32,000 nt of DNA from Geopsychrobacter electrodiphilus DSM 16401. Its GTDB lineage: Bacteria > Desulfobacterota > Desulfuromonadia > Desulfuromonadales > Geopsychrobacteraceae. The translations under genes and the position numbers were made by a program. Of this stretch, positions 2 through 16,000 are shown piece by piece. Positions within the stretch are counted from its first letter, which is position 1; each line of letters begins with the position of its first letter. The DNA lies in the NCBI RefSeq assembly GCF_000384395.1, contig NZ_ARWE01000001.1:1668894-1700893 (forward strand). The letters run 5' to 3'. The notes under the pieces are model-generated. The model had not been told where the DNA came from, ran no database searches, and saw only the letters and a list, made by a program, of their open reading frames with translations.

Positions 2-922
2 CCCTTCTCCAAGGACGAACTGCAAAATTTGCGCGATATCGCCAGGAAACAGGATTACGATATTGTTTATCTGCCGGGAGAAGAGAAGGGCGATAAAACC
101 TTCAAAGCGTTAATCTCCTCTAATGGCAGTGATAAGTTCTATCAAGATTTTCCCTTCGATATAACACCTACAGATGATAATCGGCCCTTCTTCTACTACA
201 TGCTTAAGCCGGCCTCCTTTATGAACCTTTTCTCCTTTCCAGAGCGGAGTCCGTTTGAAGATCGTGCCATCCTCGTTTTACGTAACCTGTTGCTCGTTAC
301 CGCCTCACTGGTTGGCCTCGTGTTTGGGTTGCCTCTATTGTTGAACCGAAAAAAAGGTGGGACCGGGGTGGTTGCCCTGCGTCGTGCAAGTTACTTTAGT
401 TGTCTTGGCCTTGGCTTTATGATGATTGAAATCGGATTATTACGTCGTTTTATCCTGTTCCTTGGCCAACCGATTTACTCTCTGGCGGTGATTCTTTTTT
501 CATTGTTGATTTTTTCGGGTATCGGTAGTCGCCTCTCGGCGAGTAAATCCGGGGATAGAACCTTTCTTCGCCGGATTTTATTGGCACTTGTCTTGCTCAT
601 ACCAATTTACTGTTATCTTCTGCCAGGTGTCTTATCCAGCATGGTCGGTCTGTCGTTGCTGATGCGTTGTCTGATTGCGATTCTGCTTCTGGTTCCACTT
701 GCGCTGTTGCTGGGTATGCCCTTGCCACTTGGCATGGCCCTGTTGCACCACGATGGAAGTGCCGTCCCCTGGAGTTGGGGGATTAACGGAGCCGCGAGTG
801 TGCTTGGGACGATCCTGGCGGTTATTGTTGCGATGAATTTTGGTTTTAACGTCACGATCCTTATGGGGGCGGGGTTCTATCTGGTCGCCGGTTTTTTGCT
901 CCCACGGAGTCAAGCCCAGTGA
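2..922 (+). CDS. Fused MFS/spermidine-synthase-like membrane protein, C-terminal part (5' end outside window)
   Basis: The frame stays open from base 2 (PFSKDELQNLRDIARK...), so the track's M at 29 is internal. The soluble segment ends in the ...DITPTDDNRPFFYY motif typical of membrane-fused aminopropyltransferase-like proteins. About 5-6 hydrophobic helices follow. The stop overlaps the next start (GTGA). Confidence 0.5.
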   Translation, partial: PFSKDELQNLRDIARKQDYDIVYLPGEEKGDKTFKALISSNGSDKFYQDFPFDITPTDDNRPFFYYMLKPASFMNLFSFPERSPFEDRAILVLRNLLLVTASLVGLVFGLPLLLNRKKGGTGVVALRRASYFSCLGLGFMMIEIGLLRRFILFLGQPIYSLAVILFSLLIFSGIGSRLSASKSGDRTFLRRILLALVLLIPIYCYLLPGVLSSMVGLSLLMRCLIAILLLVPLALLLGMPLPLGMALLHHDGSAVPWSWGINGAASVLGTILAVIVAMNFGFNVTILMGAGFYLVAGFLLPRSQAQ

Positions 923-1983
923 GTTTTTTTATGCGTCTTTTGGTCCTTGTGTTGCTCCTGTTCGTTCAGGCCTGCTCGTCAGGGGAGACTGGCATTGAAG
1001 GGGTTTTGTCGTTTGAGCAGAAACCTGTCAGTCAGGCTCGGGTTGAATTTTATCTGAAAAGTGGTGAAAAACGTTCATCTTCCCCCTTCAGCGTCGCCAC
1101 GACTGATGCTGAAGGGACTTTTCATGCAGCATTGCCACCCGGCGCTTATTATCTGGTGGGCAAGAAGAAGGAACAGGGTGGCGGGGTTAATCGTATGTTG
1201 ATGATTGAGTACCCGAAAAACCCGGTGGTGGTGAAAAAGGGCTACAGTTCCATAGACAACCTTTCACTACGAGAGGTCGGCTTTGAGGGAGCTATTTCTG
1301 CCGATGGCAAGACAGTTGCGCGTGGGCAGCTTATGTATGCGGGTCAACCTCAACCTGATGCCTTTGTATATGTCTATACCCATGGGGGTGCTTTGACCGG
1401 TCCGGCCTATGGTCAGGTAGTACGCGCAGATAGTAACGGGCGCTTCGTACTTAATCTCTCGGCCGGAAGTTACTGGTTGGCAGCACGTAAGCGTGATGAT
1501 GGGTCAAGAGCTGGAGGGTTAAGCGCTGGTGATCTGAATGGGGTGTATGCAGGGAACCCTCTGATTGTTAAAACAGGCGATCACCCTGATTTGGGGAAAT
1601 GGCTTCTCGAACCCGTAACCAGCGCTTCCCGGCAGCGCCGTCTAGCCTTGGGCAAGTTCGCAAAAACGACCACCTGGGTGAGTGGGAGAGTTGTCGATGA
1701 GGATCAGAGGTCTGTTCCAGGGATCTATCTCTTCGCCTATCACGATAGTCGCATGATCGGGAAGCCGAACTATATCTCATCACCTACAACCGCGGATGGC
1801 AAGTTCAGAATTTATCTTGAGCAGGGTGGAGAGTATTTTATCGGCGCACGCAGTACCTTTGGTGGACCTCTGGAGCCAGGAGAATGGGTGGGAACCTTTG
1901 ATCAAAGTCCCGACCATCGGGTGAAGACGACGACCGGGGAAGCAACTGAGCTCGGCGACATCCTGGTGCGTGAGGTTTGGTGA
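919..1983 (+). CDS. A1: secreted lipoprotein with three CarboxypepD_reg-like (transthyretin/Ig-like) modules
   Basis: GTG start 9 nt after GGAG. Signal peptide plus lipobox (LLFVQAC). Three modules show the pattern G.V....G.P......V..Y........TTD.(D/E)G.F...L(P)PG.Y(Y/W)L. Paralog of the genes at 3170-4195 and 5525-6559. Confidence 0.7.
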   Translation: MSFFMRLLVLVLLLFVQACSSGETGIEGVLSFEQKPVSQARVEFYLKSGEKRSSSPFSVATTDAEGTFHAALPPGAYYLVGKKKEQGGGVNRMLMIEYPKNPVVVKKGYSSIDNLSLREVGFEGAISADGKTVARGQLMYAGQPQPDAFVYVYTHGGALTGPAYGQVVRADSNGRFVLNLSAGSYWLAARKRDDGSRAGGLSAGDLNGVYAGNPLIVKTGDHPDLGKWLLEPVTSASRQRRLALGKFAKTTTWVSGRVVDEDQRSVPGIYLFAYHDSRMIGKPNYISSPTTADGKFRIYLEQGGEYFIGARSTFGGPLEPGEWVGTFDQSPDHRVKTTTGEATELGDILVREVW

Positions 1984-3173
1984 TGCGTCTGCTGCTTCTG
2001 TTTCTTATGTTAATCTTTTGGAGTTCGATGGCTGAGGCCCGAATTATTCGAGGGCTTGAACATTGGCAAGGAGTGGTTCGGCTTTCTGAGAGCTTGCACG
2101 TTGAAAAAACCGGACGTTTGATTCTTGCACCGGGAACTCATGTCCAGTCTAACTTTGAGATAGAAGTTTCAGGTGTATTGCAGGCAACTGATGCCGCGTT
2201 CAGTGGTGAGGACTGGCCTGGTCTGGTCCTGAAAGGGACCGGTCCAGAGACCAAGCTGATGAATTGTCGCTTTTCTGGAGCACAAACTGCAATTACGGTC
2301 ATTGGAGGTGCGCCCCAGTTCAGCAGGTTAACCCTTGAAAATAATCGGATCGGCATAGAATTACGTCAGAAGACGGCGGCGTTGGTCGAGAATTCGACTT
2401 TTCGCAAGAATAACCGCGTTGGCCTGTTTTTAAAGGATGGCACCACCGCAACGGTCAAAGGGAACCTTTTTACCCAGCAGGGGAAATTTGGCGCATATAT
2501 TTATCGGGCAAAACCTGCAGTATTTGCGGGTAACCGGTTTACCGAAAATCCAACCGGCTTAATGATCTCTCACTATGGAAGTGATCCGTTGGTTTTTAAT
2601 AATTCTTTTGAAGGGAATTCTCTTGGCATTATGGTGGATCGGTCAGCGAATCCCAGGGTTCAAAAGAATGTCTTTGATGCTAATGTAACGGCCATAAAAC
2701 TTTACCGTCGCTCAGATCCCCTGATCGAAAAGAATCAATTTCAACGAAACCATCAGGCGATCCACATCAGTTTTTCTTCCTATCCCCAGATTCACTACAA
2801 CGATTTTATTTCCAACGGGAAAGCGCTGGTTCTGGAATTTCAGTCTTCCACCTGGGAAACGCAAAAAGGGGCAAGTGCCCGTCAGAAACAGATATCAGGG
2901 CAAGGCGCTTTTGGTGGACAGAAACAGGGGCAGGTTACTGAAGAACAGCGTCGCGCCCGCAATCTTGATGGAACCATTGATGCACGACAAAATTGGTGGG
3001 GGACTACCGAGACGCACGAACTTTTGAAGCTGGGGGCGGCCGCGAATTTACCCTGGATCGTTGATGGGAAAGATACGCCATTTTTTGAAGAGTCCGGCCA
3101 GGAGTTCCCACTTGATCAGGTTCGCTGGAGTCCTTACGGAAGCCATGCCTATTCTTCAGAGGGTTTGCCATGA
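1983..3173 (+). CDS. B1: secreted right-handed parallel beta-helix repeat protein (NosD/PbH1-like) with C-terminal NWWG module
   Basis: ATG at 1983 overlaps the A1 stop (TGATG); the track starts at a TTG at 1977. Signal peptide MRLLLLFLMLIFWSSMAEA. About 9 tandem 22-23 aa repeats of the form N.F..N..G(I/L).....S.P.(I/V).., for example NRFTENPTGLMISHYGSDPLVFN and NSFEGNSLGIMVDRSANPRVQK. NWWG is at 2991-3002. Confidence 0.7.
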   Translation: MRLLLLFLMLIFWSSMAEARIIRGLEHWQGVVRLSESLHVEKTGRLILAPGTHVQSNFEIEVSGVLQATDAAFSGEDWPGLVLKGTGPETKLMNCRFSGAQTAITVIGGAPQFSRLTLENNRIGIELRQKTAALVENSTFRKNNRVGLFLKDGTTATVKGNLFTQQGKFGAYIYRAKPAVFAGNRFTENPTGLMISHYGSDPLVFNNSFEGNSLGIMVDRSANPRVQKNVFDANVTAIKLYRRSDPLIEKNQFQRNHQAIHISFSSYPQIHYNDFISNGKALVLEFQSSTWETQKGASARQKQISGQGAFGGQKQGQVTEEQRRARNLDGTIDARQNWWGTTETHELLKLGAAANLPWIVDGKDTPFFEESGQEFPLDQVRWSPYGSHAYSSEGLP

Positions 3174-4195
3174 GAAAGTTTCTCTTTATTTTTGTTTGTC
3201 TCCTGTTTCTCCCGTCAGTTTTGTTGGCCGCTTCAGGGGTTAAGGGGCGGGTTGCCTGGCGCGGTGAGTTGATCCCCGGAGTGACGATAAAGGCTTATCA
3301 TTCAATTGATGCAATTGCGTTAAAAAAGGTGTTTGCTGTCTCGGGACCAACGGGACAGGACGGTACTTATCAACTTGAACTTCCCCCTGGACGTTATTAT
3401 CTGACCGCCGGTAATGGGTCCCAGCCTGGAGACTACTTCTGTTATTACAGTGGGGCACCGATTGTGGTTCCTGCAACAGGTTTTCGTCAGGTCGGTTTTA
3501 ATCTGATCCGTATTCCCCAACCCATCGAATCACGGACAGGAAAGCGTTCAGGGCTATGGGGTGAGATCAGCTTTCAGGGTCAGCCGCTAGAGCGCACCTA
3601 TCTCTATGTTTACAAGTCAACCGAAACTGACTTTAAAGGACCGGCATGGTTTCTCCAGCCTGTCGCAAAGGGAAAGTTTCGCATGTTTTTGCCCCCTGGT
3701 GACTATTGGCTCCTTGCGCGTAAGCGGATAAAAGGTGGACAGTATGGTCCGATTGAAATCGGGGATTATTTTAATTTCTACTATGGGAACCCGATCCATA
3801 TTGATAAGAACCAGCAACGTAACATCCAGCTGGAGACCATTACCCGGTTGTCGATGTTGGAAGAGGACTCGAGTGCCCCATTTGTCGGCATTTCAGGTCA
3901 AGTTGTCGGTTTTAAAGGTCAGCCCGAGGCCGGATTGAGGGTTTTTGCTTATCGCAGTAATAAAATGACAGGGACCCCGGCTTATATCTCTGCAACTACC
4001 GGCGAAGATGGACAGTTCAGACTTTCGATTCCCGAAACGGGTAAGTACTGGTTGCTGGCCCGTCAGGAACTCGGTGGTCCCGCTAAAACCGGCGAGTTAT
4101 ACGGCAAACTGACAATGAATCATGGGGAAGCTGTGGTTTTATCAGATTCTCAAATGAGCAGAGAGGTGCGAATTAATGTTGTCCCGCATCCTTAA
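3170..4195 (+). CDS. A2: secreted protein with three CarboxypepD_reg-like modules (paralog of A1/A3)
   Basis: ATGA overlap with the B1 stop. Signal peptide MRKFLFIFVCLLFLPSVLLAAS. Shares the motifs YWLLARKR...GP.E.GDYFNFYYGNPI and ARQELGGPAKTGELYG with A1 and A3. Confidence 0.7.
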   Translation: MRKFLFIFVCLLFLPSVLLAASGVKGRVAWRGELIPGVTIKAYHSIDAIALKKVFAVSGPTGQDGTYQLELPPGRYYLTAGNGSQPGDYFCYYSGAPIVVPATGFRQVGFNLIRIPQPIESRTGKRSGLWGEISFQGQPLERTYLYVYKSTETDFKGPAWFLQPVAKGKFRMFLPPGDYWLLARKRIKGGQYGPIEIGDYFNFYYGNPIHIDKNQQRNIQLETITRLSMLEEDSSAPFVGISGQVVGFKGQPEAGLRVFAYRSNKMTGTPAYISATTGEDGQFRLSIPETGKYWLLARQELGGPAKTGELYGKLTMNHGEAVVLSDSQMSREVRINVVPHP

Positions 4196-5528
4196 ACTTC
4201 TGATCGGCTTGCTTTTTCTGCCAGTTTTGGTGATGGCGCAGCCCATGAAGATTGACGCAGACACCCTGTGGCAAGGGACCGTCAAGGTGACAGCCCCAGT
4301 CGAGGTAACGGCTACCGGGACACTGCGCATCGCCCCCGGGACGCATATCGAGGTATCCAATATTGCTGCGACTATCTCGGTACAGGGTCAGCTCCTAGTT
4401 GATGGAACCGCCCAAAAGCCGGTCATTTTCAAGACAGTTAAAGGTTGGCAGGGGATTAGTTTTGTAGAAGCCCGGCCTGGGAGCCGGATCAGTTTTGCAG
4501 AATTTAAAGACTGTGCTCAAGCTCTGGGAATTATCGCCACATCGCCAAAAATTAACAATAATTCATTCACTGATTGTGATGTCGCGATAAAGCTGCTGCG
4601 GGAATCGAGCGCTGAAATCATTAATAATCACTTTGTCGATAATGGCCTGGGGCTGGGGATAGAGATGCGTTCGGCGCCCAGGGTTGTCGGTAACAGTTTC
4701 AGTGGGCAAAAAAAGAGTGGCATTACTGCATCAAATAGTAGTCGCGGGCTGATCGAGAGCAACACCTTTACCAAAAATGAACAGGGTGTAAGCCTTTTAC
4801 AGCAATATCCTGACAAGATCCGCAAAAATAGTTTTCTTGATAATCGGGTTGGTCTCTACTGCTATCAGACGCAAAACACTCCGGTGGTCGAGGAGAATCT
4901 TTTCGTCAATAATGAATACGCTCAGGTTAATTTTTCATTTTCCTTCCCTGTCGTTAAAAATAACCGGTTTATTAAAAACAAGACGGCTCTGCAGAACGAT
5001 CAGTTCGGCTCTGCGCTGGTGGAAAATAATCTGTTTCAAAAAAACGCAACCGCTATCTTTAATAACCGCAAGTCAAATCCCAGGGTTCATTTGAACAGTT
5101 TTGTCGAGAATAAACTTGCACTGTTTGTTGATTATTCGTCCTATCCCCTTGTCCATCAGAATAATTTCGAAAAAACTGGCGAAGGTGCTCACCTTGGGAT
5201 TTACCAGAGTGCCGATTGGGAAAAACGCTCAGGCTCCAAAAAGTTGGTCATGAAAAATGCTCAGGCACGCGGTAGCAAAAATGCCATGCTGGGTAAGGCC
5301 CCGACCGAGTATACCGATATTGTTGACCTTTCTGATAACTGGTGGGGTGACCAGACCAGCGCGCTCAAGAATGCGGCAAACGGTCAAAATTTAAATTTCT
5401 TTTATGATCGCAGGGATAAGCCATCAGTCGTTTATACTGACTTTGGTCCTGACAGTTATCAACTTGATATAATTAAATTCAAACCGATTCTGCTGGAGCC
5501 TGTGCCTGGGGCAGGACTCTTGCCATGA
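4176..5528 (+). CDS. B2: secreted parallel beta-helix repeat protein with C-terminal NWWG module (paralog of B1/B3)
   Basis: ATG 9 nt after GAGAGG, with a 20-nt overlap onto A2. Signal peptide ending VMA-QP. About 11 repeats (NSFTDCDVAIKLL.., NHFVDNGLGLGIE.., NSFLDNRVGLYCY.., NLFQKNATAIFNN..). NWWG is at 5337-5348. Confidence 0.7.
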   Translation: MLSRILKLLIGLLFLPVLVMAQPMKIDADTLWQGTVKVTAPVEVTATGTLRIAPGTHIEVSNIAATISVQGQLLVDGTAQKPVIFKTVKGWQGISFVEARPGSRISFAEFKDCAQALGIIATSPKINNNSFTDCDVAIKLLRESSAEIINNHFVDNGLGLGIEMRSAPRVVGNSFSGQKKSGITASNSSRGLIESNTFTKNEQGVSLLQQYPDKIRKNSFLDNRVGLYCYQTQNTPVVEENLFVNNEYAQVNFSFSFPVVKNNRFIKNKTALQNDQFGSALVENNLFQKNATAIFNNRKSNPRVHLNSFVENKLALFVDYSSYPLVHQNNFEKTGEGAHLGIYQSADWEKRSGSKKLVMKNAQARGSKNAMLGKAPTEYTDIVDLSDNWWGDQTSALKNAANGQNLNFFYDRRDKPSVVYTDFGPDSYQLDIIKFKPILLEPVPGAGLLP

Positions 5529-6559
5529 ACATTATACGTGCAATACTGTTTTTACTTTGTTGTTCAGGTAGCGTCATGGCGACGCAGGTCGAAGGCCGAG
5601 TAGTTTTAAACGAAAAGCCTCTCGCCAGCATGCAGGTTCAAGCTTACTCCGATCTTGACCCCTCGGGGAAACCGCTCGGTTCTATAGCAACAACTGATAC
5701 AGAGGGTTTATTCAGCCTGGACCTTCCCCCTGGTTTTGTCGCGCTTTATGCCCGTTCGAAGGATGGTCGCTACTTCGCCTTTTGTGGGCGGAATCCTCTG
5801 CAGGTCGGCTCTCTGCGGGTATGGGCTGGATTGCAGGCTGTTGAGGTGACTGATCCTGTTTTTTCAGTCTATGATGACCAGTATACGGCTTCCCTTGAGG
5901 GTGTAGTTACTTTTGAGGGTAAACCGATATCAGACGCTTTTGTTTCGCTGTATCTTGATGTCGCAGATGATCTGAAGGGCCAGGGGTATCGGCACTCGGC
6001 TGGTACCGGTGCGGATGGCTTTTTTGCTTTTGATGGCTTGCCGGAAAGTAATTACTTTTTGGTGGTGCGCAAAAGGCAGAATCTCGAACCTGTAGGGCCT
6101 TTGGTTGATGGTGATTTTATGGGTGTTTATGCAGGCAATCCGATAAGTCTGAAATCCGGGAGGACGGCCGTTGTCACTCTGCCGATGGTTGAACGTAAAT
6201 CAGGCTCCCGAAAAGGAGCACTTCCTGATCGCCCAGGCCCGATCAAATTGGCGGGACGCATAGTCGATATTTCAGGGAAGCCTCTGGCCAACCTACATTT
6301 TTTTGCGTATCGCGATCCTGTGATTGGACATCAGCGACCGGACGTTTTAAGTGCACAAACAGGCGCTGACGGTCAATTTGAGGTCAGTTTCCGTGAGCCG
6401 GGTATTTACTATGTTGGTGCTCGTGAAGCATATGGCGATTCGCCCGCTCCTGGGGAACTCTTTGGTCTTTATTCCGGTCGTGCTGATCATGGGTTGCAGA
6501 TTGTCGTTGGAAATAATGATCCGGTCGTGATTCAGGCGACCCCGATCCGTCTTGATTAA
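5525..6559 (+). CDS. A3: secreted protein with three CarboxypepD_reg-like modules (paralog of A1/A2)
   Basis: ATGA overlap with the B2 stop. Signal peptide ending SVMA-TQ. Motifs YFLVVRKR...GPLVDGDFMGVYAGNPI and AREAYGDSPAPGELFG. Confidence 0.7.
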   Translation: MNIIRAILFLLCCSGSVMATQVEGRVVLNEKPLASMQVQAYSDLDPSGKPLGSIATTDTEGLFSLDLPPGFVALYARSKDGRYFAFCGRNPLQVGSLRVWAGLQAVEVTDPVFSVYDDQYTASLEGVVTFEGKPISDAFVSLYLDVADDLKGQGYRHSAGTGADGFFAFDGLPESNYFLVVRKRQNLEPVGPLVDGDFMGVYAGNPISLKSGRTAVVTLPMVERKSGSRKGALPDRPGPIKLAGRIVDISGKPLANLHFFAYRDPVIGHQRPDVLSAQTGADGQFEVSFREPGIYYVGAREAYGDSPAPGELFGLYSGRADHGLQIVVGNNDPVVIQATPIRLD

Positions 6560-6572
6560 CAGGGGAATTCTC

Positions 6573-6872
6573 ATGTCCACTAGTAAATCCAAGCCTGCAC
6601 TTGAAATTCAACTGGAGAACGATGTCGCTCAGGGCATTTACGTCAATCTTGCTGTCGTAAATCATACTGATACCGAGGTCACTCTCGATCTAATTTATGT
6701 TCAGCCGCAAGAGTTGCGGGGCACTGTTCGCTCCCGCGTGATCGTATCACCGAGGCATGCAAAACGGTTGTTACGTGCATTGCAGGAGAATCTCGACCGT
6801 TACGAGCAGACTTTTGGAGAAATTAAAATAGAAAACACCCTCATAAAGCAGGATGTCAGTCCTTACCATTGA
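6573..6872 (+). CDS. DUF3467-like small protein (no signal peptide)
   Basis: ATG at 6573 lies 7 nt after AGGGGA; the track's TTG at 6552 is less likely. The segment ...LEIQLENDVAQGIYVNLAVVNHTDTEVTLDLIYVQP... matches my recollection of the DUF3467 core (E..GVYAN...I.H...EF.LDF). It is the only product in this operon stretch without an export signal. Confidence 0.55.
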   Translation: MSTSKSKPALEIQLENDVAQGIYVNLAVVNHTDTEVTLDLIYVQPQELRGTVRSRVIVSPRHAKRLLRALQENLDRYEQTFGEIKIENTLIKQDVSPYH

Positions 6873-7705
6873 TGAAAAATCTTCTTCTAACCCTTCTGTT
6901 TTTGTCGCTGGCTGTCTCCTGCGCGCCGCTAAGACCCCTTGAAGTTTCCGATCTGGTGATTTCCGACGCGCAGGTCTGGCAGGGGGATATTTATATCTCC
7001 GGGGTTGTTCGGGTTACTCGTGAGGGAAGTTTAACCCTTTTACCCGGAACTAAACTTGTTTTTAAGCGCATGGATCTTGACGGTGATGGGATCGGTGACG
7101 CAGCACTTGTTGTTGAAGGGAGTTTTGAGGCACGAGGAACGATCGAACGGCCCATTTTACTGACCAGCGGTGAGCCTGAGCCTAAACCGGGGGATTGGAA
7201 ATTTTTGTATTTTGATTATGCGCGTCAGGTCGAAATTTCACATTTGGTTTCAGAATATGCTTACAGCGGGGTCCAGATTCATTTTTGTCGCGCGCTAATT
7301 ACCTCGAGTGAATTTCGTAATAATGTGGATGGGGTGCGTTTTTCGACTGCGAATATTACGCTTCGACACAGTTTTCTTCATCACAATCGGCATGGTATTC
7401 GCTTTGAAGAACGAGGAGGACGTGGGATTATACGGCAAAACAGGATCAGTAATAATCAGATCGGGGTCTTTGTCGTCACCCGTGGCGCAGGGCGGACCCA
7501 TTTTGAGCAGAATGATATTGTCGAAAACCGGCCCTATCAAATAAAAATGGGCCTCGAACAAAAACACCCGCTCGACTTTCCTCGCAACTGGTGGGGAGAT
7601 GTCAGCGGTCTCTCGGTTGAGACAGTTTTTGATCAGCGTAAAGATCGTGCGTTAGGCCTGGTTTCTGGGACTGAGCCCTTGAATAAGCCAGTAACGGAGT
7701 TTTAA
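6872..7705 (+). CDS. B3: short lipoprotein parallel beta-helix repeat protein with C-terminal NWWG module
   Basis: ATG at 6872 overlaps the DUF3467 stop (TGATG). Lipobox LSLAVSC. The N-terminal box VWQGDIYISGVVRVTREGSLTLLPGTKLVF is shared with B1 and B2. About 5 beta-helix repeats. NWWG is at 7586-7597. Confidence 0.65.
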   Translation: MKNLLLTLLFLSLAVSCAPLRPLEVSDLVISDAQVWQGDIYISGVVRVTREGSLTLLPGTKLVFKRMDLDGDGIGDAALVVEGSFEARGTIERPILLTSGEPEPKPGDWKFLYFDYARQVEISHLVSEYAYSGVQIHFCRALITSSEFRNNVDGVRFSTANITLRHSFLHHNRHGIRFEERGGRGIIRQNRISNNQIGVFVVTRGAGRTHFEQNDIVENRPYQIKMGLEQKHPLDFPRNWWGDVSGLSVETVFDQRKDRALGLVSGTEPLNKPVTEF

Positions 7706-7726
7706 GGAAAAGGAGTCGGTAAGGTT

Positions 7727-8323
7727 ATGAAAATTGTGAGCTCGGTATTGGTGTTGCTCCTGTTATTGTTTTGCTCTGTCGTAAACGTTTCGGCCTGTGT
7801 CGGAAAAACGCTTAAAATTGGGACCTCCGGTACGGTTCAACAGGAGGTTCTTGCCAACATTATCGCTGAGCTGATCAGCGAACGAACCGGTACGACAGTA
7901 AAGGTGGTGCCCTTTAAGGACAGCGCTGATGCGCATGCAGCCTTGCTGAAGGCCGATATTGACATGTTTGTTGAATACACCGGAGTCAGTCAAACACAGA
8001 TTCTGCAAGCACAACCGCTGAAGGATGCAACCGCCCTTTATAACTCCGTTAAGGATCGCTACAATCAGGATCTGAATCTTATCTGGCTGAAACCTTTTGG
8101 TTTTGATGCAGCGCAGAGTCTGGGCGTCTCCTTGCCGGCTGAAGCGGCCCCAGTTGTCCGCAAAGACACCCTGAAAAAGTTCCCGGCTTTGGCCCGCTTG
8201 ATTAATAAACTCGGTGGTAAAATCGACTTGCAGACTATTGCGCTGTTAGAAAAGGAGTCTGCCTCGGGAGTCCAGCCGAAGCAGGTCGCTCATGGTTTTC
8301 TCAAGAACAATCGCCTGATTTAG
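7727..8323 (+). CDS. Minimal OpuAC (glycine-betaine-type) substrate-binding-like lipoprotein
   Basis: AAGGAG-type RBS. Lipobox NVSAC. The N-terminal lobe pattern GKTLKIGTSGTVQQEVLANIIAELI...ALLKADIDMFVEYTGV...LIWLKPFGF resembles OpuAC/OsmX binding proteins. At 198 aa it is roughly two-thirds of the usual length. No ABC permease or ATPase gene is nearby. Confidence 0.5.
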   Translation: MKIVSSVLVLLLLLFCSVVNVSACVGKTLKIGTSGTVQQEVLANIIAELISERTGTTVKVVPFKDSADAHAALLKADIDMFVEYTGVSQTQILQAQPLKDATALYNSVKDRYNQDLNLIWLKPFGFDAAQSLGVSLPAEAAPVVRKDTLKKFPALARLINKLGGKIDLQTIALLEKESASGVQPKQVAHGFLKNNRLI

Positions 8324-8332
8324 GTATTGTCT

Positions 8333-9244
8333 ATGCTCGACCGTCGTCAGTTTATTTTCCAGTCCTTACGCAGTGCATGCCTGGCCGCGGTGGCCGGTTC
8401 TATCCCGCAACTTATTTTGCCAAGGGCCGTCTATGCTGCTCAGGATCGCGTTCTGGTAGTGCGAACCGGGGAAGATATCCCCCAACTTGTGCGTCAGACA
8501 GTCGCCGCCCTCGGAGGGATGGAGCGTTTTGTCAAACCAGGTGAAACCGTGGTGGTCAAGCCGAATATTGGCTGGGACCGCGGGGTTGACCTGGCGGCAA
8601 ATACACATCCGCTTGTCGTCAAAACGGTTGTGAGTCTTTGTCTTGAAGCTGGAGCTAAAAAGGTTCAACTTTTTGATCGCACTTGTAATGACCCACGCCG
8701 CTGTTATGTCAGTAGTGGCATTCAACAGGCCATTTCAGACCTCAATTCGATACAGGCAGAGCTTGTATATATGGACCGGCGCGCGTATAAAGAACTCGAA
8801 ATTTCCCAAGGTAAGGCTATCAATCGGTGGTCATTTTATCTGCCAGCGCTTGAGGCCGATCGGCTAATTAACCTTCCGATAGCCAAACATCACTCCATTT
8901 CAACCCTGACTCTTGGAATGAAAAACCTGATGGGAGTCATTGGCGGGAATCGCGGTATGCTGCATAGCAAGATCGCCGAAGCTCTCGCGGATATCAATAC
9001 CGTCATCCACTCTGATTTAACCTTGATCGATGCGACCCGTATTCTTGTAGCAAACGGACCGCAGGGCGGGCGTCTTGAGGACGTTGAAGTGAGAAACACT
9101 CTGATCGCATCGCCTCAGGTAGTGACAGCCGATGCATTTGCCTCAACCCTCTTCGGCTATCAACCAGATCAGATCGAAACGATCGTTGCTGGTTATCGGA
9201 GAGGTCTTGGCGAAATCGATCTGAGCCGGGTTCAGCGGCTCTGA
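8333..9244 (+). CDS. DUF362 domain protein with twin-arginine (Tat) signal
   Basis: ATG at 8333 (track: TTG at 8327). Tat motif MLDRRQFIF followed by an h-region and AxA (VYAAQ). DUF362-like blocks VVVKPNIGWDR, INLPIAKHHSISTLTLGMKNLMG and LIDATRILVANGPQGG. Confidence 0.6.
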   Translation: MLDRRQFIFQSLRSACLAAVAGSIPQLILPRAVYAAQDRVLVVRTGEDIPQLVRQTVAALGGMERFVKPGETVVVKPNIGWDRGVDLAANTHPLVVKTVVSLCLEAGAKKVQLFDRTCNDPRRCYVSSGIQQAISDLNSIQAELVYMDRRAYKELEISQGKAINRWSFYLPALEADRLINLPIAKHHSISTLTLGMKNLMGVIGGNRGMLHSKIAEALADINTVIHSDLTLIDATRILVANGPQGGRLEDVEVRNTLIASPQVVTADAFASTLFGYQPDQIETIVAGYRRGLGEIDLSRVQRL

Positions 9245-10770
9245 TGTCTCTCAGTCGTAAATGGCGAATTTTAGTTCAAAGCCTGACTTTATTGGGTTTT
9301 TGTTGGCTTTTCCTGCAAACAGAATATCGTGGGACAGACGAACTAGCCTATCCCGTCAGCCTACTCTTTCGTCTCGATCCTCTGGCTCTTGTATCCGCGT
9401 TTTTTGCTTCAGGTAAAACCGACTTTATTCTGCTATGGCCAGCATTTCTGTTGCTTGTCTTGACGATTATTTTCGGACGATTTTTTTGCGGTTGGCTCTG
9501 TCCTTTAGGTTCTTTGCTCGACTTTTTAGGGGCTCCTTTACGCCGTTCTCAAAGTCGATTCTCTGGTTGGCCGAAGTTTAAATACTACCTGCTCTCGGCT
9601 TTGACTTTAGCGAGTCTTTGCGGCCTGCAACTGTTTGGCTTGTTTGACCCTCTGAGTATCTTTTTACGTAGCCTTACATTAGCTATTAATCCGGTGTGGA
9701 ACCTCCTGGCTAACACGACCTTTGATTGGCTCTATCAAGCGAAACTTCCGCTGATAAGCTCCACAGCTGATGTTGTTTATCCCTTCTTTCGTGATCATCT
9801 GCTGGCTTTCAGACAACCTGTTTTTCTGCTCACGATTTTGACAGCCTTCGTCTTTTTAGCGGTTATTCTACTCGAACGATTACAACCTCGTTTCTGGTGT
9901 CGCAATCTTTGCCCGCTCGGCGCTTTGCTCGGTCTTTGTTCGCAACCAAGCCGATTGCAACGAACTCCTCAGTCCGATTGTTCCGACTGCAAGCAATGTT
10001 CTCTTCAGTGTTACATGGGGGCATCGGCCGCAGATTCAAGTCATGCCGCAGAATGCATCCGCTGTCTCGACTGCCTCGATTTTTGCCCGAATCAGCGGGT
10101 GAAATTTCACTTCAGCAAGAGGGGGGAAAAGCGTTTTGACCTGTCTCGGCGCACCTTGCTGGCTGCTTCAGTTGGTGGGGTTATGTTAGCACCTCTCGCT
10201 GCCGCGGCACCGCTGAGCGCAAGCTATCGCAATGATTTAATCCGCCCTCCAGGGGCTACTGGAGAGTCCGAGTTTTTACGTCGTTGTATCCGTTGTGGTG
10301 AATGCATGAAGGTTTGTATTGGCGGGGCATTGCACCCGGATTTATTGCGAGGCGGGGCTTTTTCGCTTTGGTCGCCTGTGGTTGTGGCGCGACTTGGATA
10401 TTGTGAATATGACTGTACCCTGTGCGGGCAGGTCTGCCCGACAGGGGCAATCAAATCGTTGGAAATTAAGCAAAAACGCCAAATAAAAATCGGTTTGGCC
10501 GTTATTGATAAAAATCGTTGTCTGCCATTTGCGCGTGGTCAGGAATGTCTGGTTTGTGAGGAGCACTGTCCCACCGGTAAAAAAGCGATCACGTTTGATC
10601 GCCACAAGGACCTTGTTGAAAGTGAAGCGCGGGACCTATTGCAACCGCGTGTGCTAAAAGAGCTCTGTATCGGATGTGGCATCTGCGAAACCCGTTGTCC
10701 TGTGGCCGGTCGTAGCGCAATTATGATTATCAGTGAAGGTGAAAGCAGAGCTCCGCAGGGCCTTTTGTGA
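9244..10770 (+). CDS. Membrane polyferredoxin: NapH-like N-terminal half fused to a NapG-like four-cluster ferredoxin half
   Basis: TGATG overlap with the DUF362 stop. Several TM helices and two CX3CP motifs (FFCGWLCPLGSL, FWCRNLCPLGAL). Cys clusters: CSDCKQCSLQC, CIRCLDCLDFCP, then an internal SRRTLLAASVGGVMLAPLAAAA segment, then LIRPPGA..E.EFLRRCIRCGECMKVC, CTLCGQVCP, CLVCEEHCP and CIGCGICETRCP. Confidence 0.7.
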   Translation: MSLSRKWRILVQSLTLLGFCWLFLQTEYRGTDELAYPVSLLFRLDPLALVSAFFASGKTDFILLWPAFLLLVLTIIFGRFFCGWLCPLGSLLDFLGAPLRRSQSRFSGWPKFKYYLLSALTLASLCGLQLFGLFDPLSIFLRSLTLAINPVWNLLANTTFDWLYQAKLPLISSTADVVYPFFRDHLLAFRQPVFLLTILTAFVFLAVILLERLQPRFWCRNLCPLGALLGLCSQPSRLQRTPQSDCSDCKQCSLQCYMGASAADSSHAAECIRCLDCLDFCPNQRVKFHFSKRGEKRFDLSRRTLLAASVGGVMLAPLAAAAPLSASYRNDLIRPPGATGESEFLRRCIRCGECMKVCIGGALHPDLLRGGAFSLWSPVVVARLGYCEYDCTLCGQVCPTGAIKSLEIKQKRQIKIGLAVIDKNRCLPFARGQECLVCEEHCPTGKKAITFDRHKDLVESEARDLLQPRVLKELCIGCGICETRCPVAGRSAIMIISEGESRAPQGLL

Positions 10771-10812: not shown

Positions 10813-10834
10813 AGTGCCAATCTGGGTACTTTTT
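10813..10834 (+). terminator. Weak candidate intrinsic terminator after the 11-gene operon
   Basis: AGTGCC (10813-18) pairs with GGTACT (10825-30) as a 6-bp stem containing one G-U pair, and is followed by TTTTT. It lies 43 nt after the stop. The stem is short, so the call is tentative. Confidence 0.25.
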
Positions 10835-10983
10835 GAACAAGATCTCAGGCAATGTCGGGGGTGGAGATTTGGGGAAATTCCACTCATTAAAGCTGCCGCC
10901 CTCATGAATTAAAGTGACGATATCGGTGAATAAGGGCCTGTTTCGTTCGACTATTCTGAAGTTATTGCGGGGGACAGTTTGTC

Positions 10984-11913
10984 TCAGGGGCAGGGGGATT
11001 GAATTGTTTCAACCCTGTTGCGGCCATTATTTTTAGCGAGATAGAGAGCTTCATCTGCCATTCTGATTAACTCATCTTCAGATTTTAATTTATCTCCTGA
11101 AACGGCGGCAACGCCTAGACTAATTGTCAACTTGAGCGGACCGAGGTTGCCGCTGAAATGGTAATTTTCAATGCGCTGGCGGATCCGGTCAGCGACCTCG
11201 GCGGCATGGGCAAGATTCGTTTCTGGAAGAACCAGGCAAAACTCCTCTCCTCCATAGCGTGCCGCCAGATCGTAGGGGCGCAAATGCTCCCTCAGCAAAT
11301 CAGCGACAAGAATCAGGACCTCATCCCCGGCTTGATGACCATATTTATCATTCACGTTCTTAAAGTGATCAATGTCGCACATGATCAGGGCGCAGGGGGA
11401 TAGATTCCGTTGGCAGCGGTTGAGCTCATTTTCAAGCATCTCTGTTAATGAACGTCGATTGCACAGGCGCGTCAGGGGGTCTGTTTGAGAAAGTTCAAGC
11501 AGCAGGCGATTGCTGCGGCGTAATTCATCCTGCAATGTTTTGAGTTGCAGATGTACTTTGAGCCTGGCGATAAGCTCTGCTGGTTCGAACGGTTTTATAA
11601 TATAATCACTTGCGCCACTCTCGAGCCCACGGACTTTAGAAGCAACATCGTCATGGCTGGTGAGCATGATCACAGGTTTGTCATTTAAATCCTCACGAGA
11701 CTGGAGCAGGGCAAGAAACTTCAAGCCATCGATTCCGGGCATTTCAATGTCACACAATATAACATCGACATGATTATTGACCAGCAGCTTGAACCCCTCA
11801 ACACCGCTGTTCGCCTGCAAGACCCTTTGGAACAGGTGGTTTTGGGTTATGGTTTCCATTACTTGCTGACGAATAGCTGCAGAATCATCGATAATCAGAA
11901 GTGTGCGTTCCAT
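10984..11913 (-). CDS. Response regulator receiver + GGDEF diguanylate cyclase (PleD/WspR-like)
   Basis: Preferred start is MERTLLIIDDS at 11913 (track: 11949). Receiver residues DD, CDIEMPGIDG, MLTS and KPF are present. A coiled linker leads to the GGDEF domain, which has an active GGEEF and an RxxD I-site exactly 5 residues upstream (RPYDLAARYGGEEF). Confidence 0.85.
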   Translation of the reverse strand: MERTLLIIDDSAAIRQQVMETITQNHLFQRVLQANSGVEGFKLLVNNHVDVILCDIEMPGIDGLKFLALLQSREDLNDKPVIMLTSHDDVASKVRGLESGASDYIIKPFEPAELIARLKVHLQLKTLQDELRRSNRLLLELSQTDPLTRLCNRRSLTEMLENELNRCQRNLSPCALIMCDIDHFKNVNDKYGHQAGDEVLILVADLLREHLRPYDLAARYGGEEFCLVLPETNLAHAAEVADRIRQRIENYHFSGNLGPLKLTISLGVAAVSGDKLKSEDELIRMADEALYLAKNNGRNRVETIQSPCP

Positions 11914-12009
11914 ATCTGGCCTTAATTTAACGTTATGCGTAAATATCAATAGGACGCGAAGAATAAATAGAGATTATTTTAATAAAAAAGTTAAGCAAAG
12001 TACGCCTAG

Positions 12010-12303
12010 TTAGCAGTTGCCACCTCCACCGCAATCGCAGCTGGGTTCGTCTCCGGTGAGCCAACTATGAATAATGGCACTGGCACAACCAACACCAGCG
12101 TGGACCGTTATTGCTCCAACGGGGCAGTTGCCGACGCAGGCACCGCATTCCATGCAGTTATCCAGTGCGGTGATCCAGGCTAAATCATCTTCGATCTTGA
12201 AAACGGCCCGTGGACAAACGATAGCACAAAGCCCACAACCGACGCATTTCTCCTGCTCAAGTTTGAGGGTCACAACGTTCTTTAAGTATTTTTGATGAGC
12301 CAT
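12010..12303 (-). CDS. hgcB: HgcB, 2x[4Fe-4S] ferredoxin of the mercury methylation pair
   Basis: Lies immediately downstream of hgcA. ATG at 12303 is 8 nt after AGGGA (track: 12309). MAHQKYLKNVVTLKLEQEKCVGCGLCAIVCP plus CMECGACVGNCP give two CX2CX2CX3CP motifs. The tail is Cys-rich (SCDCGGGGNC). Size is about 97 aa. Confidence 0.85.
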   Translation of the reverse strand: MAHQKYLKNVVTLKLEQEKCVGCGLCAIVCPRAVFKIEDDLAWITALDNCMECGACVGNCPVGAITVHAGVGCASAIIHSWLTGDEPSCDCGGGGNC

Positions 12304-12318
12304 CGTCATTATCCCTGT

Positions 12319-13503
12319 TTAAAAGGCGGTCCACAGCCAGAGTCCAAGTGCGATAACAACCGCAATTAACTGGCAGGGGATTGCGATTCGCATCTCTTTT
12401 TCGACTCCAGAGGGCGATGTGTAGGTCGAGGAACCGGTGAAGTTCATTGCCGCATAACTTGAGATAGCCGTCACCTGTAATAGTAACGCGATATGGATCG
12501 TGCTCCCGGCATCGGGGAGAAGACTGCCGCCCAGAAGAATGGCTATCGCCAATCCTGTCCAAATACCTTTGAGGGAGAATGCCCGGCCCGGAAGCCAGGG
12601 CAGCAGAACCGGAGTGATGACTGCTCCAGCGACAAGCCCCGAAAATCCCGTCGCGATGGCGCTACCACCACGAATCAAAGCCGCGGAGGTAGAAAAGACC
12701 TGACTACCGATGCCCCCCAGCAGCAGGAGAGCTAATGCTGTATAGAAAATTTGACGGTAAAGAATTGTAATTTCAACCGGAGTTAAAACAATGCGGTCCA
12801 AAAGAGTGAAGTTGACGCGTCTCATCGCCGGTGTCGCCTGCCGGTTGTACGTGAAAAAGGCAGGAAGATCCTGAGCCCTGACCGGGCCGTAAACAACATT
12901 GAAATCGCACCCATTTTTTACCAGATGGGCAGCAACTCCCGGGGCGCCTAACTGAGGAACGATCAGGCGTCGGTGGGTAACCAGTTTTGTGAGGTGAAAT
13001 TTTTTAACGCAGCGGATAATCTCATCGGTGCCAAACGTTCCCTTGCCGGCAGCGCACCAGACGTTAATCCCTTTGGTATCAATTACCAGGATCCAGGCAT
13101 TGATGCTGCCCAATGATCTACGCAGAACGTCGAAACTCAGTTTATAGTTGGCCGAAATCAGAACTTCAGCTTCCGCATCTGGTGTGCCGACGGCATAAAT
13201 TCCGGGAGCGACAGCATAATGGTTACGACCAATGCCCCAACGCATGGCAATGCGTCCAAACTGATCAACCCGGTTGAGTTTGCGTGCAACGACCGGGATC
13301 TCTCCAATGGGCGTATCCAGCCAGTTTTCTATAAACCCTTCAAGCTTGTACTCTGGTTTCCTGTGATCAGCCACAGGCGGACAGCAGGATTGTTTACCGG
13401 ACTTCGGGGGGCAGCAGTTTTGCACGGTGTCGGGCGCATTTACAGGACAACAGCTGTCGGTGGGTGCTACTTTTGGAGTGCAACAGTTTTCTGTTTCAGT
13501 CAT
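12319..13503 (-). CDS. hgcA: HgcA, corrinoid protein of the mercury methylation pair
   Basis: The diagnostic cap-helix motif GINVWCAAGKGTFGT is present (NVWCAAGK encoded at 13042-13065). The C-terminal half contains about 5 TM helices. Paired with the ferredoxin gene 9-15 nt downstream. Confidence 0.9.
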   Translation of the reverse strand: MTETENCCTPKVAPTDSCCPVNAPDTVQNCCPPKSGKQSCCPPVADHRKPEYKLEGFIENWLDTPIGEIPVVARKLNRVDQFGRIAMRWGIGRNHYAVAPGIYAVGTPDAEAEVLISANYKLSFDVLRRSLGSINAWILVIDTKGINVWCAAGKGTFGTDEIIRCVKKFHLTKLVTHRRLIVPQLGAPGVAAHLVKNGCDFNVVYGPVRAQDLPAFFTYNRQATPAMRRVNFTLLDRIVLTPVEITILYRQIFYTALALLLLGGIGSQVFSTSAALIRGGSAIATGFSGLVAGAVITPVLLPWLPGRAFSLKGIWTGLAIAILLGGSLLPDAGSTIHIALLLQVTAISSYAAMNFTGSSTYTSPSGVEKEMRIAIPCQLIAVVIALGLWLWTAF

Positions 13504-14563: not shown

Positions 14564-14799
14564 TTGGTCACTCCGTCAAGGATATGAAAATTTAAAGGCG
14601 CGACAGATTAGCTCTTTTTGTGGGTCAAAGTCAAAACTACCCGGCAGATTTTAACGGGAATAGTTGAGTCATTCCGGTCGATTCTACTATTTTTATAAGC
14701 TCAAGCTGTTGCTTCTAAATACCTGATTTGACTAAACGCTCCAATCTCAGTATAAACTCAAGGGATTACAGCAACTTTCAGTGGATGGAGTTTGATCGA

Positions 14800-15087
14800 A
14801 TGAATACCGTTTTTATTGCTTTGGCACGACTGGTCGACCTTGTTTTCAACCTCTATATTTTTATAGTGGTTGCCCGTGCACTGGTCAGCTGGGTTAGCCC
14901 TGACCCCTATAACCCGATTGTGCGTTTTTTGCATAATGCCACAGATCCTGCGCTTTATCGGCTGCGCAAATTACTCCCTTTTTCGACTGGCGCCATCGAT
15001 TTTAGTCCGATGATACTTATTTTTTTACTTTATCTTCTGCAGGGGTTTTTGGTGAACATGCTGATTAGCCTCGGCAACACCTTTTAA
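14800..15087 (+). CDS. yggT: YggT family membrane protein
   Basis: MNTVFIALARLVDLVFNLYIFIVVARALVSWVSPDPYNP..., the YggT signature. ATG at 14800 is 9 nt after GGAG. The track's TTG at 14728 adds an implausible 24 aa leader. Confidence 0.75.
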   Translation: MNTVFIALARLVDLVFNLYIFIVVARALVSWVSPDPYNPIVRFLHNATDPALYRLRKLLPFSTGAIDFSPMILIFLLYLLQGFLVNMLISLGNTF

Positions 15088-15106
15088 CGCGAAATATGAG
15101 CCTGCA

Positions 15107-15628
15107 ATGAAGATCACTCCGATAGAAATTCAGCAACATCGATTTAAAACCCGCGTCTTTGGTTATGACTCGAGCGCGGTTGATCAATTCCTTGAGATGA
15201 TCGCTGATGAACTGGAGTCCCTGCATAAGCAGAATAACGAATTAAAAGAAGCTCTCGCTCGGACCCGAACGGTTCTTGACCAGATGAAGAGTCGTGAGCA
15301 GGCGCTGCAACAGACCCTGATGACCGCGCAGCAGGTGACAGAAGAGCTTAAGAATACCGCCCGAAAAGAAGCTGAGCTGGTCATGGTCGATGCCCGTATG
15401 CAGGGTGAGCAGATTGTCCGTAGCGCCGATGAAAGGCGTCTTCAGCTTATACGTGAAATCCAGGAGATTAAACGTCAGAAAATCTCTTTTGAAAGCAGTT
15501 TGCGGGCGATGGTTGATGGTCATCTTAAATTACTGGACATGGAGACCTTCACCGTTGAGGAATGCGAAGAAGATGCGCCGCTCCTCGCAACTCAACGCAT
15601 GCAGCGACCCCTTGAACTTGATCGCTGA
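15107..15628 (+). CDS. divIVA: DivIVA domain protein
   Basis: The N-terminus MKITPIEIQQHRFKTRVFGYDSSAVDQFLEMIADELESL is the canonical DivIVA lipid-binding domain. A coiled coil follows. Confidence 0.85.
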   Translation: MKITPIEIQQHRFKTRVFGYDSSAVDQFLEMIADELESLHKQNNELKEALARTRTVLDQMKSREQALQQTLMTAQQVTEELKNTARKEAELVMVDARMQGEQIVRSADERRLQLIREIQEIKRQKISFESSLRAMVDGHLKLLDMETFTVEECEEDAPLLATQRMQRPLELDR

Positions 15629-15933
15629 TGCTAGACTGTCTTAAGGCACATGCCAAAGGAACGGTTCTTAGCCTGCATGTTCAGCCTCGTTCCAGCCGCA
15701 ACCAGATCGTCGGATTGCATGGCGAAAGGCTCAAACTGAAATTAACTTCCCCTCCGGTGGAGGGTTCTGCAAACAAGTGCTGCTGTGACTATCTGGCAAA
15801 ACTTTTCAAGTTGTCCAAGTCGGATATTGAGCTGATTTCTGGGGACAAGGCGCGTCAAAAGCGCATCTTGTTACATGGGCTCGATCCACAGAGTGTTGCC
15901 GTTATTTTAATGGCCGAACTTTCCAGTTCTTGA
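15628..15933 (+). CDS. yggU: DUF167/YggU family protein
   Basis: ATGA-type overlap with the divIVA stop. LHVQPRSSRNQIVGLHGERLKLKLTSPPVEGSANK...ISGDKARQKRI matches the UPF0235/YggU pattern. Confidence 0.75.
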   Translation: MLDCLKAHAKGTVLSLHVQPRSSRNQIVGLHGERLKLKLTSPPVEGSANKCCCDYLAKLFKLSKSDIELISGDKARQKRILLHGLDPQSVAVILMAELSSS

Positions 15934-15958
15934 CTTTTTGATGTCAGAGCCGTAACAT
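15930..15958 (+). promoter_or_regulatory. Candidate sigma70-type promoter for the zinc-ribbon gene
   Basis: TTGACT (15930-35), 17-nt spacer, TAACAT (15953-58). It lies 43 nt upstream of the ATG at 16001. Pattern match only. Confidence 0.25.
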
Positions 15959-16000
15959 CCCGCCGCTGTATAGAAGATTCTTGAGTCGGAGGATATTGAA

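Follow-up and report, generated by a model that had tools for sequence, protein, structure and literature searches.

A locus in Geopsychrobacter electrodiphilus DSM 16401 raises the question of which protein is served by a membrane-bound polyferredoxin (PFD) that is encoded in one operon with a set of secreted proteins. The window, i.e., the whole stretch of DNA analysed, comprises 32,000 nucleotides (nt) of contig NZ_ARWE01000001.1 (assembly GCF_000384395.1, positions 1,668,894–1,700,893), and the operon consists of 11 consecutive open reading frames (ORFs) on the + strand at window positions 2–10770. Among its products are exported beta-sandwich proteins (A1–A3), secreted beta-helix proteins (B1–B3), a DUF362 protein with a signal for twin-arginine translocation (Tat), and PFD. 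In the original prediction, PFD and DUF362 were proposed to deliver electrons across the membrane to the A and B proteins, and the operon was described as having no recognisable catalytic partner. The analysis presented here shows the DUF362/PFD pair to be a self-contained module of which the A and B proteins are not an obligate partner, and points to DUF362 itself as a plausible catalytic subunit.

A PFD alignment was scanned against one genome per GTDB species, which gave at least 546 relatives, and the best 80 loci were analysed. All 80 encode a full-length PFD (37–78% identity), and they span more than 10 phyla, including Desulfobacterota, Nitrospirota, Acidobacteriota, Verrucomicrobiota, KSB1, Ignavibacteria, Bacteroidota, Omnitrophota, and Firestonebacteria. 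A DUF362 gene was found to adjoin the PFD gene in 74 of the 80 loci, immediately upstream in 68 and downstream in six (the arrangement in locus L009 was assigned by eye). The six exceptions were one locus at a contig end, two loci lacking DUF362, and three loci in which PFD is fused to DUF6599. Outside the clade bearing A and B genes, about half of the loci showed no same-strand neighbour within 200 nt of the DUF362/PFD pair. A-family proteins were present in only 9/80 loci and the pair occurred without A and B in 71/80; A and B therefore cannot be an obligate electron acceptor of the pair.

A third partner of DUF362 and PFD was sought by clustering about 1,240 neighbouring ORFs and by comparing 68 operon-mates with Pfam, and no recurrent family was found. 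The Pfam matches of the operon-mates were to generic response regulators, tetratricopeptide repeat, GGDEF, and methyl-accepting chemotaxis proteins, and to CbiX in three related loci. In these three Desulfobacterales-like loci, a small CbiX-type chelatase gene is located directly 3′ of the PFD gene (L032:6550–6909, L036:11521–11880, and L039:11585–11980), a neighbour that may be relevant should DUF362 contain a metal cofactor. The PFDs that are C-terminally fused to DUF6599, with no DUF362 nearby, were from Brocadiaceae and one Thermodesulfobacteriota metagenome-assembled genome (L077:9842–12337, L078, and L071:1335–3872). In Acidobacteriota, the gene order is PFD, a separate DUF6599 gene, and two Tat-DUF362 genes (L062:11542–12033). 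DUF6599 may serve PFD as a periplasmic partner in place of DUF362 or in addition to it.

The DUF362 protein of the window matched Pfam DUF362 (PF04015) with 153.9 bits (threshold 24; E = 7.5e-45) over profile positions 1–198 of 200. Its Tat export, already suggested by the original prediction, was supported by the twin-arginine signal DRRQFIF and by the presence of the RR motif in 61 of 69 orthologues adjoining PFDs, as well as in 115 of 131 distant full-length representatives (33–54% identity). Invariant residues were K76, P77, N78, D115, K185, H187, K197, H211, D233, and R236, with no Cys among them. The family is large (5,289 clusters at 50% identity, E ≤ 1e-3). Structures were predicted with AlphaFold2 on database proteins, and the DUF362 model (predicted local distance difference test score, pLDDT, 87.8) was compared with the PDB by Foldseek. 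The top 19 chains all belonged to the LarA family (E values from 6e-9 to 6e-6, probability 1.00, query-normalised template modelling score about 0.5), and no other family was matched at E < 1e-3. As the model matches LarA-type enzymes only, DUF362 becomes a candidate catalytic partner in the operon, plausibly a catalytic subunit with a LarA-type fold, and the view that the operon encodes no recognisable one is not supported.

The LarA superfamily comprises lactate racemase and other nickel-pincer-nucleotide enzymes that racemise or epimerise 2-hydroxy acids. Besides being the sole significant structural matches (PDB 5HUQ, 9Q3J, 9EIA, 6D6Z, and 4NAR), these enzymes share a Pfam clan with DUF362, since DUF362 and LarA_N are both placed in CL0471 (PMC11770544), and the invariant K185, H187, K197, and H211 of DUF362 are located in a strand-loop-helix region. 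However, mature DUF362 is shorter (about 263 amino acids compared to 424 in LarA), and neither sequence nor profile comparisons revealed a significant similarity to LarA. Furthermore, LarA is cytoplasmic and redox-neutral overall, whereas DUF362 is exported by Tat and forms a pair with an Fe-S protein. When DUF362 was searched against PDB sequences, both as a sequence and as a profile, no meaningful match was obtained, and no larB, larC, or larE gene was found within the window. In an hhalign comparison of the DUF362 profile with a single sequence identical to 5HUQ_A, H187 paired with H174 and K197 with K184, in a weak alignment (E = 0.3); comparison with a three-sequence LarA profile gave E values of 0.17–0.36, again with weak alignments that conflicted with the 5HUQ_A run. 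The spacing of H187/K197/H211 in DUF362 recalls that of H174/K184/H200 in LarA, where K184 tethers the cofactor, H200 is a nickel ligand, and H108 and H174 are catalytic. Because the alignments are weak and inconsistent, we do not claim any residue-level equivalence between DUF362 and LarA.

PFD (508 amino acids) was found to be a NapH-NapG fusion with four predicted transmembrane helices and a fifth one further on, containing Fer4_5 twice plus 4Fe-4S domains. The N-terminal half was most similar to NapH (75.5 bits against a cutoff of 213; MauN, 73.5 against 234) and the C-terminal half to NapG (E = 2.3e-31; 109 bits against a cutoff of 269). The layout of the NapH/MauN family, which combines four transmembrane helices with two CX3CP motifs and, at the C-terminus, a pair of 4-Cys motifs, is present in the N-terminal half: hydrophobic segments are found at residues 38–89, 115–148, and 185–215, and the two CX3CP motifs noticed in the original prediction (C82-C86-P87 and C219-C223-P224) as well as the cytoplasmic 4-Cys motifs (246–256 and 271–281) were 100% conserved in 82 homologues. 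These are followed by an internal twin-arginine motif, SRRTLL, at residues 301–306 (R302 90% and R303 100% conserved in the same homologues), by the Ala/Gly/Pro-rich fifth helix (about residues 304–326), and by R331 and R336. The C-terminal part contains four further 4-Cys motifs (348–358, 387–398, 426–442, and 475–485), so that the NapG/MauM layout of a twin-arginine motif and then four 4-Cys [4Fe-4S] motifs is also present, but fused to the first half. All 28 Cys of PFD were 100% conserved in the 82 homologues. No nap or mau genes were found near PFD in the window, and sequence and profile searches against PDB sequences gave no meaningful match. PFD had been described as NapH/NosR-like, and the NapH part of this description was confirmed. 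A NosR-like protein was ruled out: the NosR score was 37 bits against a cutoff of 1000, confined to the C-terminal ferredoxin part of the model, and PFD has no FMN_bind domain, unlike the N-terminal periplasmic domain of NosR.

For a PFD homologue from MLMS-1 (Q1NSB0), it was shown experimentally that Sec inserts the first four helices, after which helix five is translocated by Tat together with the C-terminal domain (Tooke et al., 2017, eLife; PMC5449189). That study described PFD as a NapH-NapG fusion and addressed its membrane insertion; a function was not assigned and DUF362 was not mentioned. Judged by its sequence, the PFD of the window fits this family of dual Sec/Tat polytopic polyferredoxins, with which it shares the NapH-NapG fusion, the conserved RR directly before a weakly hydrophobic fifth helix, the positive charges after it, and the four periplasmic-side Cys motifs. 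In addition, the taxa reported in that study (Nitrospirae, Caldithrix, and Desulfobulbaceae) overlap with those of the full-length homologues found here. Such a topology would place four [4Fe-4S] clusters in the periplasm, beside the Tat-exported DUF362. PFD also resembles the NapGH/NosGH quinol dehydrogenases of Escherichia coli and Wolinella succinogenes, in which a membrane NapH contains two CX3CP motifs as well as Fe-S clusters on its cytoplasmic side, and in which the counterpart of the C-terminal block of PFD is NapG, a periplasmic protein that depends on Tat and has four [4Fe-4S] clusters. It differs from them in that both blocks are part of one polypeptide with scores far below the family cutoffs, and in that DUF362 adjoins it instead of a NapA/B/C, NosZ, or cytochrome c partner.

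The best-supported model, to which we would give an even chance, is that of a NapGH-like conduit, fused in a single Sec/Tat-inserted protein, that serves a periplasmic, Tat-exported enzyme with a LarA fold, while an accessory set in Desulfuromonadales handles the substrate. The NapH-like half of PFD would be located in the membrane, its CX3CP motifs and a pair of Fe-S motifs facing the cytoplasm, and the internal twin-arginine motif and weakly hydrophobic fifth helix would allow Tat to place the NapG-like half with its four [4Fe-4S] motifs in the periplasm. DUF362 would be folded in the cytoplasm with its cofactor and then exported by Tat; export in the folded state implies that the cofactor is received in the cytoplasm. 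By analogy with NapGH and NosGH, the Fe-S chain might conduct electrons between DUF362 and the quinone pool (or a donor in the cytoplasm), with DUF362 acting on a periplasmic substrate. The layout of the operon, its domains and conserved motifs, the adjacency counts, and the similarity in fold are results of the analysis; electron transfer between PFD and DUF362 and the direction it takes are inferred, as are the cofactor, the substrate, and what A and B do.

The accessory set, which occurs chiefly in Desulfuromonadales and the members of which are nearly all exported, would consist of the three A/B pairs, DUF3467, B3, and an OpuAC-like lipoprotein, joined in relatives by a fusion of a beta-helix B protein with a pyrroloquinoline quinone (PQQ)-type beta-propeller, an FG-GAP/ASPIC protein, and DUF3047. 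No redox or metal motifs were found in the accessory proteins, and their most likely role is to bind, display, or process the substrate, which might be a polymer or surface-bound compound, rather than to accept electrons. Weak hints at a sugar-acid or polysaccharide substrate come from the structural neighbours of B2, which act on uronate polymers, and from PDB 4NAR, one of the fold matches of DUF362, which is annotated as a putative uronate isomerase. Besides, LarA relatives act on 2-hydroxy acids (PMC11770544), and fusions of DUF362 with a family 9 carbohydrate-binding module (CBM9) and dockerin occur in cellulolytic communities (PMC5742341).

The relation between the A/B array and the pair was also followed from the opposite direction. 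A scan of metagenomes with A2-type sequences only gave 53 loci (44–73% identity). Contigs reaching far enough downstream contained, in this order, A3, DUF3467, B3, OpuAC, DUF362, PFD, and DUF3047 (L094/95, L104, L108, L109, and L127), and two contigs stop at OpuAC (L096 and L133). The same gene order was found in L083/L084, which were detected with the A homologue P0220. In Desulfuromonas carbonis and a Desulfuromonas sp., the window order is preceded by FG-GAP/ASPIC, A0, the B-PQQ-propeller fusion, and ORF0, and followed by DUF3047, while Geothermobacter contains a reduced cluster of A, B-PQQ, DUF3467, OpuAC, DUF362, PFD, and DUF3047. Within Desulfuromonadales, operon synteny persisted at A2 identities as low as 44%. 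In three distant lineages, L022, L052 (Rokubacteria), and L057, A and B homologues were found 0–9 kb downstream of the DUF362/PFD pair; in L022 the order is PFD, a beta-propeller protein of 1090 amino acids, and A, with gaps of 0–15 nt. These data support a non-random linkage of the A/B array to the pair. The co-occurrence of A/B, DUF362, and PFD, proposed as a check in the original prediction, was therefore found in one direction: the presence of A/B nearly always implies the pair, while the pair does not imply A/B.

An explanation that we consider unlikely but that deserves serious attention is that two unrelated systems share one transcription unit, a surface- or glycan-acting beta-helix/beta-sandwich cluster and an independent PFD-DUF362 module, which inheritance rather than function would keep side by side in Desulfuromonadales. 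Elsewhere, the pair stands on its own, and the whole neighbourhood (the GGDEF regulator, hgcAB, DAHP synthase, and yggT/divIVA) is syntenic in relatives, so inherited gene order is strong here. However, start and stop codons overlap through the entire operon, and the order was kept to 44% A2 identity and through the remodelling of the cluster in Geothermobacter. Moreover, the A family is rare (306 matches to A2 at E ≤ 1e-5; B2 is likewise a small family, with 187 homologues), yet A genes were found 3–9 kb from PFD in three distant lineages, in L022 even within the same gene string as PFD.

The A and B proteins themselves bear on the proposal that PFD and DUF362 carry electrons to them for a NosD-style assembly of copper, sulfur, or another cofactor or metal. 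A1 is exported, possibly as a lipoprotein, and was shown to contain three tandem transthyretin/CarboxypepD_reg-like beta-sandwich domains (Pfam CarboxypepD_reg, 1.1e-13; DUF4198, 1.4e-13), the two families matched by the A proteins as a group. A1 to A3 are paralogues (A1 compared to A2 and A3, 29–30% identity). B1 is a secreted right-handed parallel beta-helix (Pfam Beta_helix, 3e-28; NosD, 2e-26), and B2 a secreted parallel beta-helix with a helical/beta C-terminal region that contains an NWWG motif (Pfam NosD, 1e-30). B3 is a short beta-helix lipoprotein with a calcium-type motif, DxDxDGxxD, represented by DLDGDGIGD at residues 68–76, and D68, D70, D72, G73, and D76 were more than 90% conserved in 20 B3 orthologues. 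This motif is typical of extracellular calcium-binding loops. B3 also shares homology with the beta-helix region that relatives encode within B-PQQ-propeller fusions (tblastn to the L002 fusion, 4e-33).

The B proteins share with NosD, the periplasmic beta-helix of NosDFY (PDB 7OSF/7O0Y), the right-handed parallel beta-helix and the periplasmic location, and they pass the Pfam NosD threshold. However, the scores with NCBIfam NosD (TIGR04247) were 67.5, 53.9, and 28.1 bits for B1, B2, and B3, respectively, far below the cutoff of 300, and the fold similarity, as seen for B2, is no closer than to other beta-helices. The B2 model (pLDDT 91.9) matched AlgG (4.7e-4), inulin lyase, and polysaccharide lyase family 6 (PL6) enzymes best in the PDB, with phage tailspikes also among the matches, and NosD (7osf_A) ranked only 14th (1.6e-3); all these matches are weak (E about 1e-3). 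Family alignments of A1–A3 and B1–B3 (20–48 sequences each) contained no conserved Cys/His/Met clusters, and accordingly no conserved metal ligands were seen in the B proteins; conserved were Asn ladders, Gly, Pro, and aromatic residues, in B1 the Asn ladder only. The B loci also lack the ATP-binding cassette (ABC) partner NosF/NosY, NosZ, and NosL, in agreement with the original prediction, as no nosZ, nosF, nosY, or nosL was found in the window or in 10-kb flanks of L001, L002, L083/84, and L138. Because of the low NosD scores and the 14th structural rank, "NosD-like", as applied to the B proteins, is no more than a fold label.

Delivery of electrons to A and B is therefore improbable in our view, even though the B proteins pass the Pfam threshold, A/B share an operon and conserved gene order with the redox pair, and Nos systems of Epsilonproteobacteria pair NosD with the NapGH-like NosGH. 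From the assembly first proposed for this operon, the extracytoplasmic location is retained, with export signals on most products, while the transfer of electrons to proteins devoid of Cys/His/Met clusters is not. A maintenance or maturation system, in which PFD and DUF362 provide reducing power for repair or activation of exported proteins like MsrPQ, with A and B as clients in the Desulfuromonadales clade, would agree with the stand-alone two-gene layout without conserved substrate-specific neighbours that is typical of housekeeping periplasmic repair modules, and with the comparison of dual-targeted fusions to MsrPQ-type pairs by Tooke et al. (PMC5449189), but is likewise improbable, given that the LarA fold belongs to small-molecule 2-hydroxy-acid enzymes and that A and B have no conserved oxidisable Cys/Met sites.

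Some observations weigh against the model of PFD as a conduit to a LarA-fold enzyme with A and B as its accessories. Since some PFDs lack DUF362 and are fused to DUF6599, DUF362 is not the sole possible partner of PFD. The profile alignments between DUF362 and LarA are not significant and are mutually inconsistent, the interaction of PFD with DUF362 is deduced from adjacency and a shared compartment only, and the literature searched held no experimental data on any operon gene or on DUF362. The linkage of A/B to the module comes mostly from one order, in which synteny could partly reflect shared ancestry. Besides, L099 has no PFD, its DUF362 being followed by unrelated genes on the − strand, and in L119, a contig containing Ns, nothing recognisable follows B3. 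In L099, DUF362 directly follows B3 with neither a DUF3467 nor an OpuAC gene (4565–6551), an arrangement due to either a rearranged locus or a faulty assembly.

Neither the polyferredoxin family nor the principle of NapGH is new, although the family has so far served solely to study how Sec and Tat jointly insert a membrane protein. Relative to the literature searched, the near-universal pairing of PFD with Tat-DUF362, the LarA fold of the partner, and the accessory cluster of Desulfuromonadales have not been described; the same literature contained no functional study of DUF362 (PF04015), DUF3467, DUF3047, or DUF6599, nor of a nickel-pincer enzyme with a twin-arginine signal. As DUF362 and PFD are near-obligate neighbours over many anaerobic phyla and DUF362 has the fold of LarA enzymes, two "unknowns" are joined into one hypothesis, that of a quinone-linked periplasmic enzyme. 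A further-reaching version, which we regard as doubtful, is that DUF362 might be a Tat-exported LarA-type enzyme that is wired to the quinone pool via PFD and that obtains its cofactor, of the nickel-pincer kind or another organometallic one, while still in the cytoplasm. It would then represent a new class of periplasmic oxidoreductases in more than 10 phyla of anaerobes, for which Desulfuromonadales might have recruited an exported beta-helix/beta-sandwich/beta-propeller set of about 15 genes, possibly for an acidic polysaccharide or surface-bound substrate. If DUF362 uses a nickel-pincer-type cofactor, pincer chemistry would also operate in the periplasm and extend to net electron transfer. 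In Desulfuromonadales, the module occurs in metal- and electrode-respiring bacteria, with G. electrodiphilus, Desulfuromonas carbonis, and Geothermobacter as cultivated hosts.

The operon was confirmed to be as tight as originally described (gaps of 21 nt or less), the junctions from ORF0 to PFD being +8, −1, −4, −20, −4, +13, −1, +21, +9, and −1 nt, and the gene order stood except for a DUF3467 gene that had been overlooked (Table 1). No promoter or terminator was found to separate A/B from DUF362/PFD: promoter-like matches (13, compared to 11.2 ± 3.5 in shuffled sequence) and terminator-like matches (18, compared to 14.9 ± 3.9) were at background, with none in an intergenic gap. Downstream of the PFD gene, a search revealed no inverted repeat and no terminator-like hairpin. 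Signal, lipoprotein, or Tat sequences were found in all operon products except DUF3467, ORF0, and the portion of PFD that lies within the membrane and in the cytoplasm. The operon probably begins well upstream of the window, because relatives encode further genes 5′ of ORF0. These are genes for a fourth A protein, the beta-helix/PQQ-type beta-propeller fusion (611–617 amino acids), and an FG-GAP/ASPIC protein (L083/L084:53–5304, L002:4600–8986, and L138:1–4291); in two lineages, FmdE-domain and ArsP_1 permease genes are also located 5′ of ORF0. The convergent gene that follows the operon keeps its position in all Desulfuromonadales relatives examined (L001, L002, L083, and L138).

Table 1. Features of the operon and its downstream region in the window (coordinates of the operon genes refer to ATG starts).
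Feature	Position	Strand	Remark
ORF0	2–922	+	5′ end beyond window edge
A1	931–1983	+	
B1	1983–3173	+	
A2	3170–4195	+	
B2	4176–5528	+	
A3	5525–6559	+	
DUF3467 gene	6573–6872	+	
B3	6872–7705	+	
OpuAC-like lipoprotein	7727–8323	+	
DUF362	8333–9244	+	
PFD	9244–10770	+	
DUF3047 C-terminus remnant	10823–10960	+	tblastn with L001 DUF3047 residues 158–204: 45% identity, 47 amino acids, E = 7e-5
Response-regulator/GGDEF diguanylate cyclase	10984–11949	−	next gene after operon, convergent
hgcB	12010–12309	−	128.5 bits against cutoff of 99
hgcA	12319–13503	−	NCBIfam HgcA, 422.7 bits against cutoff of 275; NVWCAAGK motif

The ORF0 part in the window corresponds to the C-terminal, multi-transmembrane part (about 306 amino acids) of a polytopic membrane protein of about 804–815 amino acids, the position of which is conserved in relatives. 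It had been labelled a fused MFS/SpeE-like (major facilitator superfamily/spermidine synthase) membrane protein. That it is a membrane protein holds; the part in the window had no Pfam match, and the full-length homologue (L001:165–2579) showed sub-threshold spermidine-synthase matches only (Pfam, 18.2 against 22.9 bits; NCBIfam, 25 against 260). The DUF3467 protein (Pfam DUF3467, 2.5e-26) is small, has no signal peptide, and is presumably cytoplasmic; its gene still adjoins DUF362/PFD in L008, L012, and L014, loci without A/B genes. The OpuAC-like lipoprotein (198 amino acids, lipobox Cys24 conserved) was correctly seen as a minimal orphan, with 85 bits to Pfam OpuAC (7.5e-24), the best stretch covering profile positions 1–92 of 257. 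The two-lobe OpuAC binding domain is not complete, NCBIfam OsmF gave 37.5 bits against a cutoff of 400, and no ABC permease or ATPase genes were found in the operon. The gene is confined to Desulfuromonadales versions of the locus. An intact DUF3047 gene is located 3′ of the PFD gene in L001, L002, L083/84, and L138, and G. electrodiphilus has therefore lost this gene, of which a remnant is still detectable.

The mercury-methylation genes hgcAB are located 1.2 kb past the operon end. Adjacency of HgcA to the cluster was limited to close relatives within Desulfuromonadales (L001, L003, L004, L007, L008, and L009) and was seen in none of the loci from other phyla; a functional link of hgcAB with the operon was therefore rejected, and their adjacency is explained by inherited synteny. 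Further downstream, the stretch 14728–29994, in which no lar, nos, or cytochrome genes were found, contains housekeeping genes (yggT, divIVA, yggU, folD, gcvT/H/P1/P2, a TonB-like gene, and pta) as well as a type IV pilus/type II secretion system (T2SS)-like cluster (PilC/T2SSF, T2SSE ATPase, PilN, and PilO).

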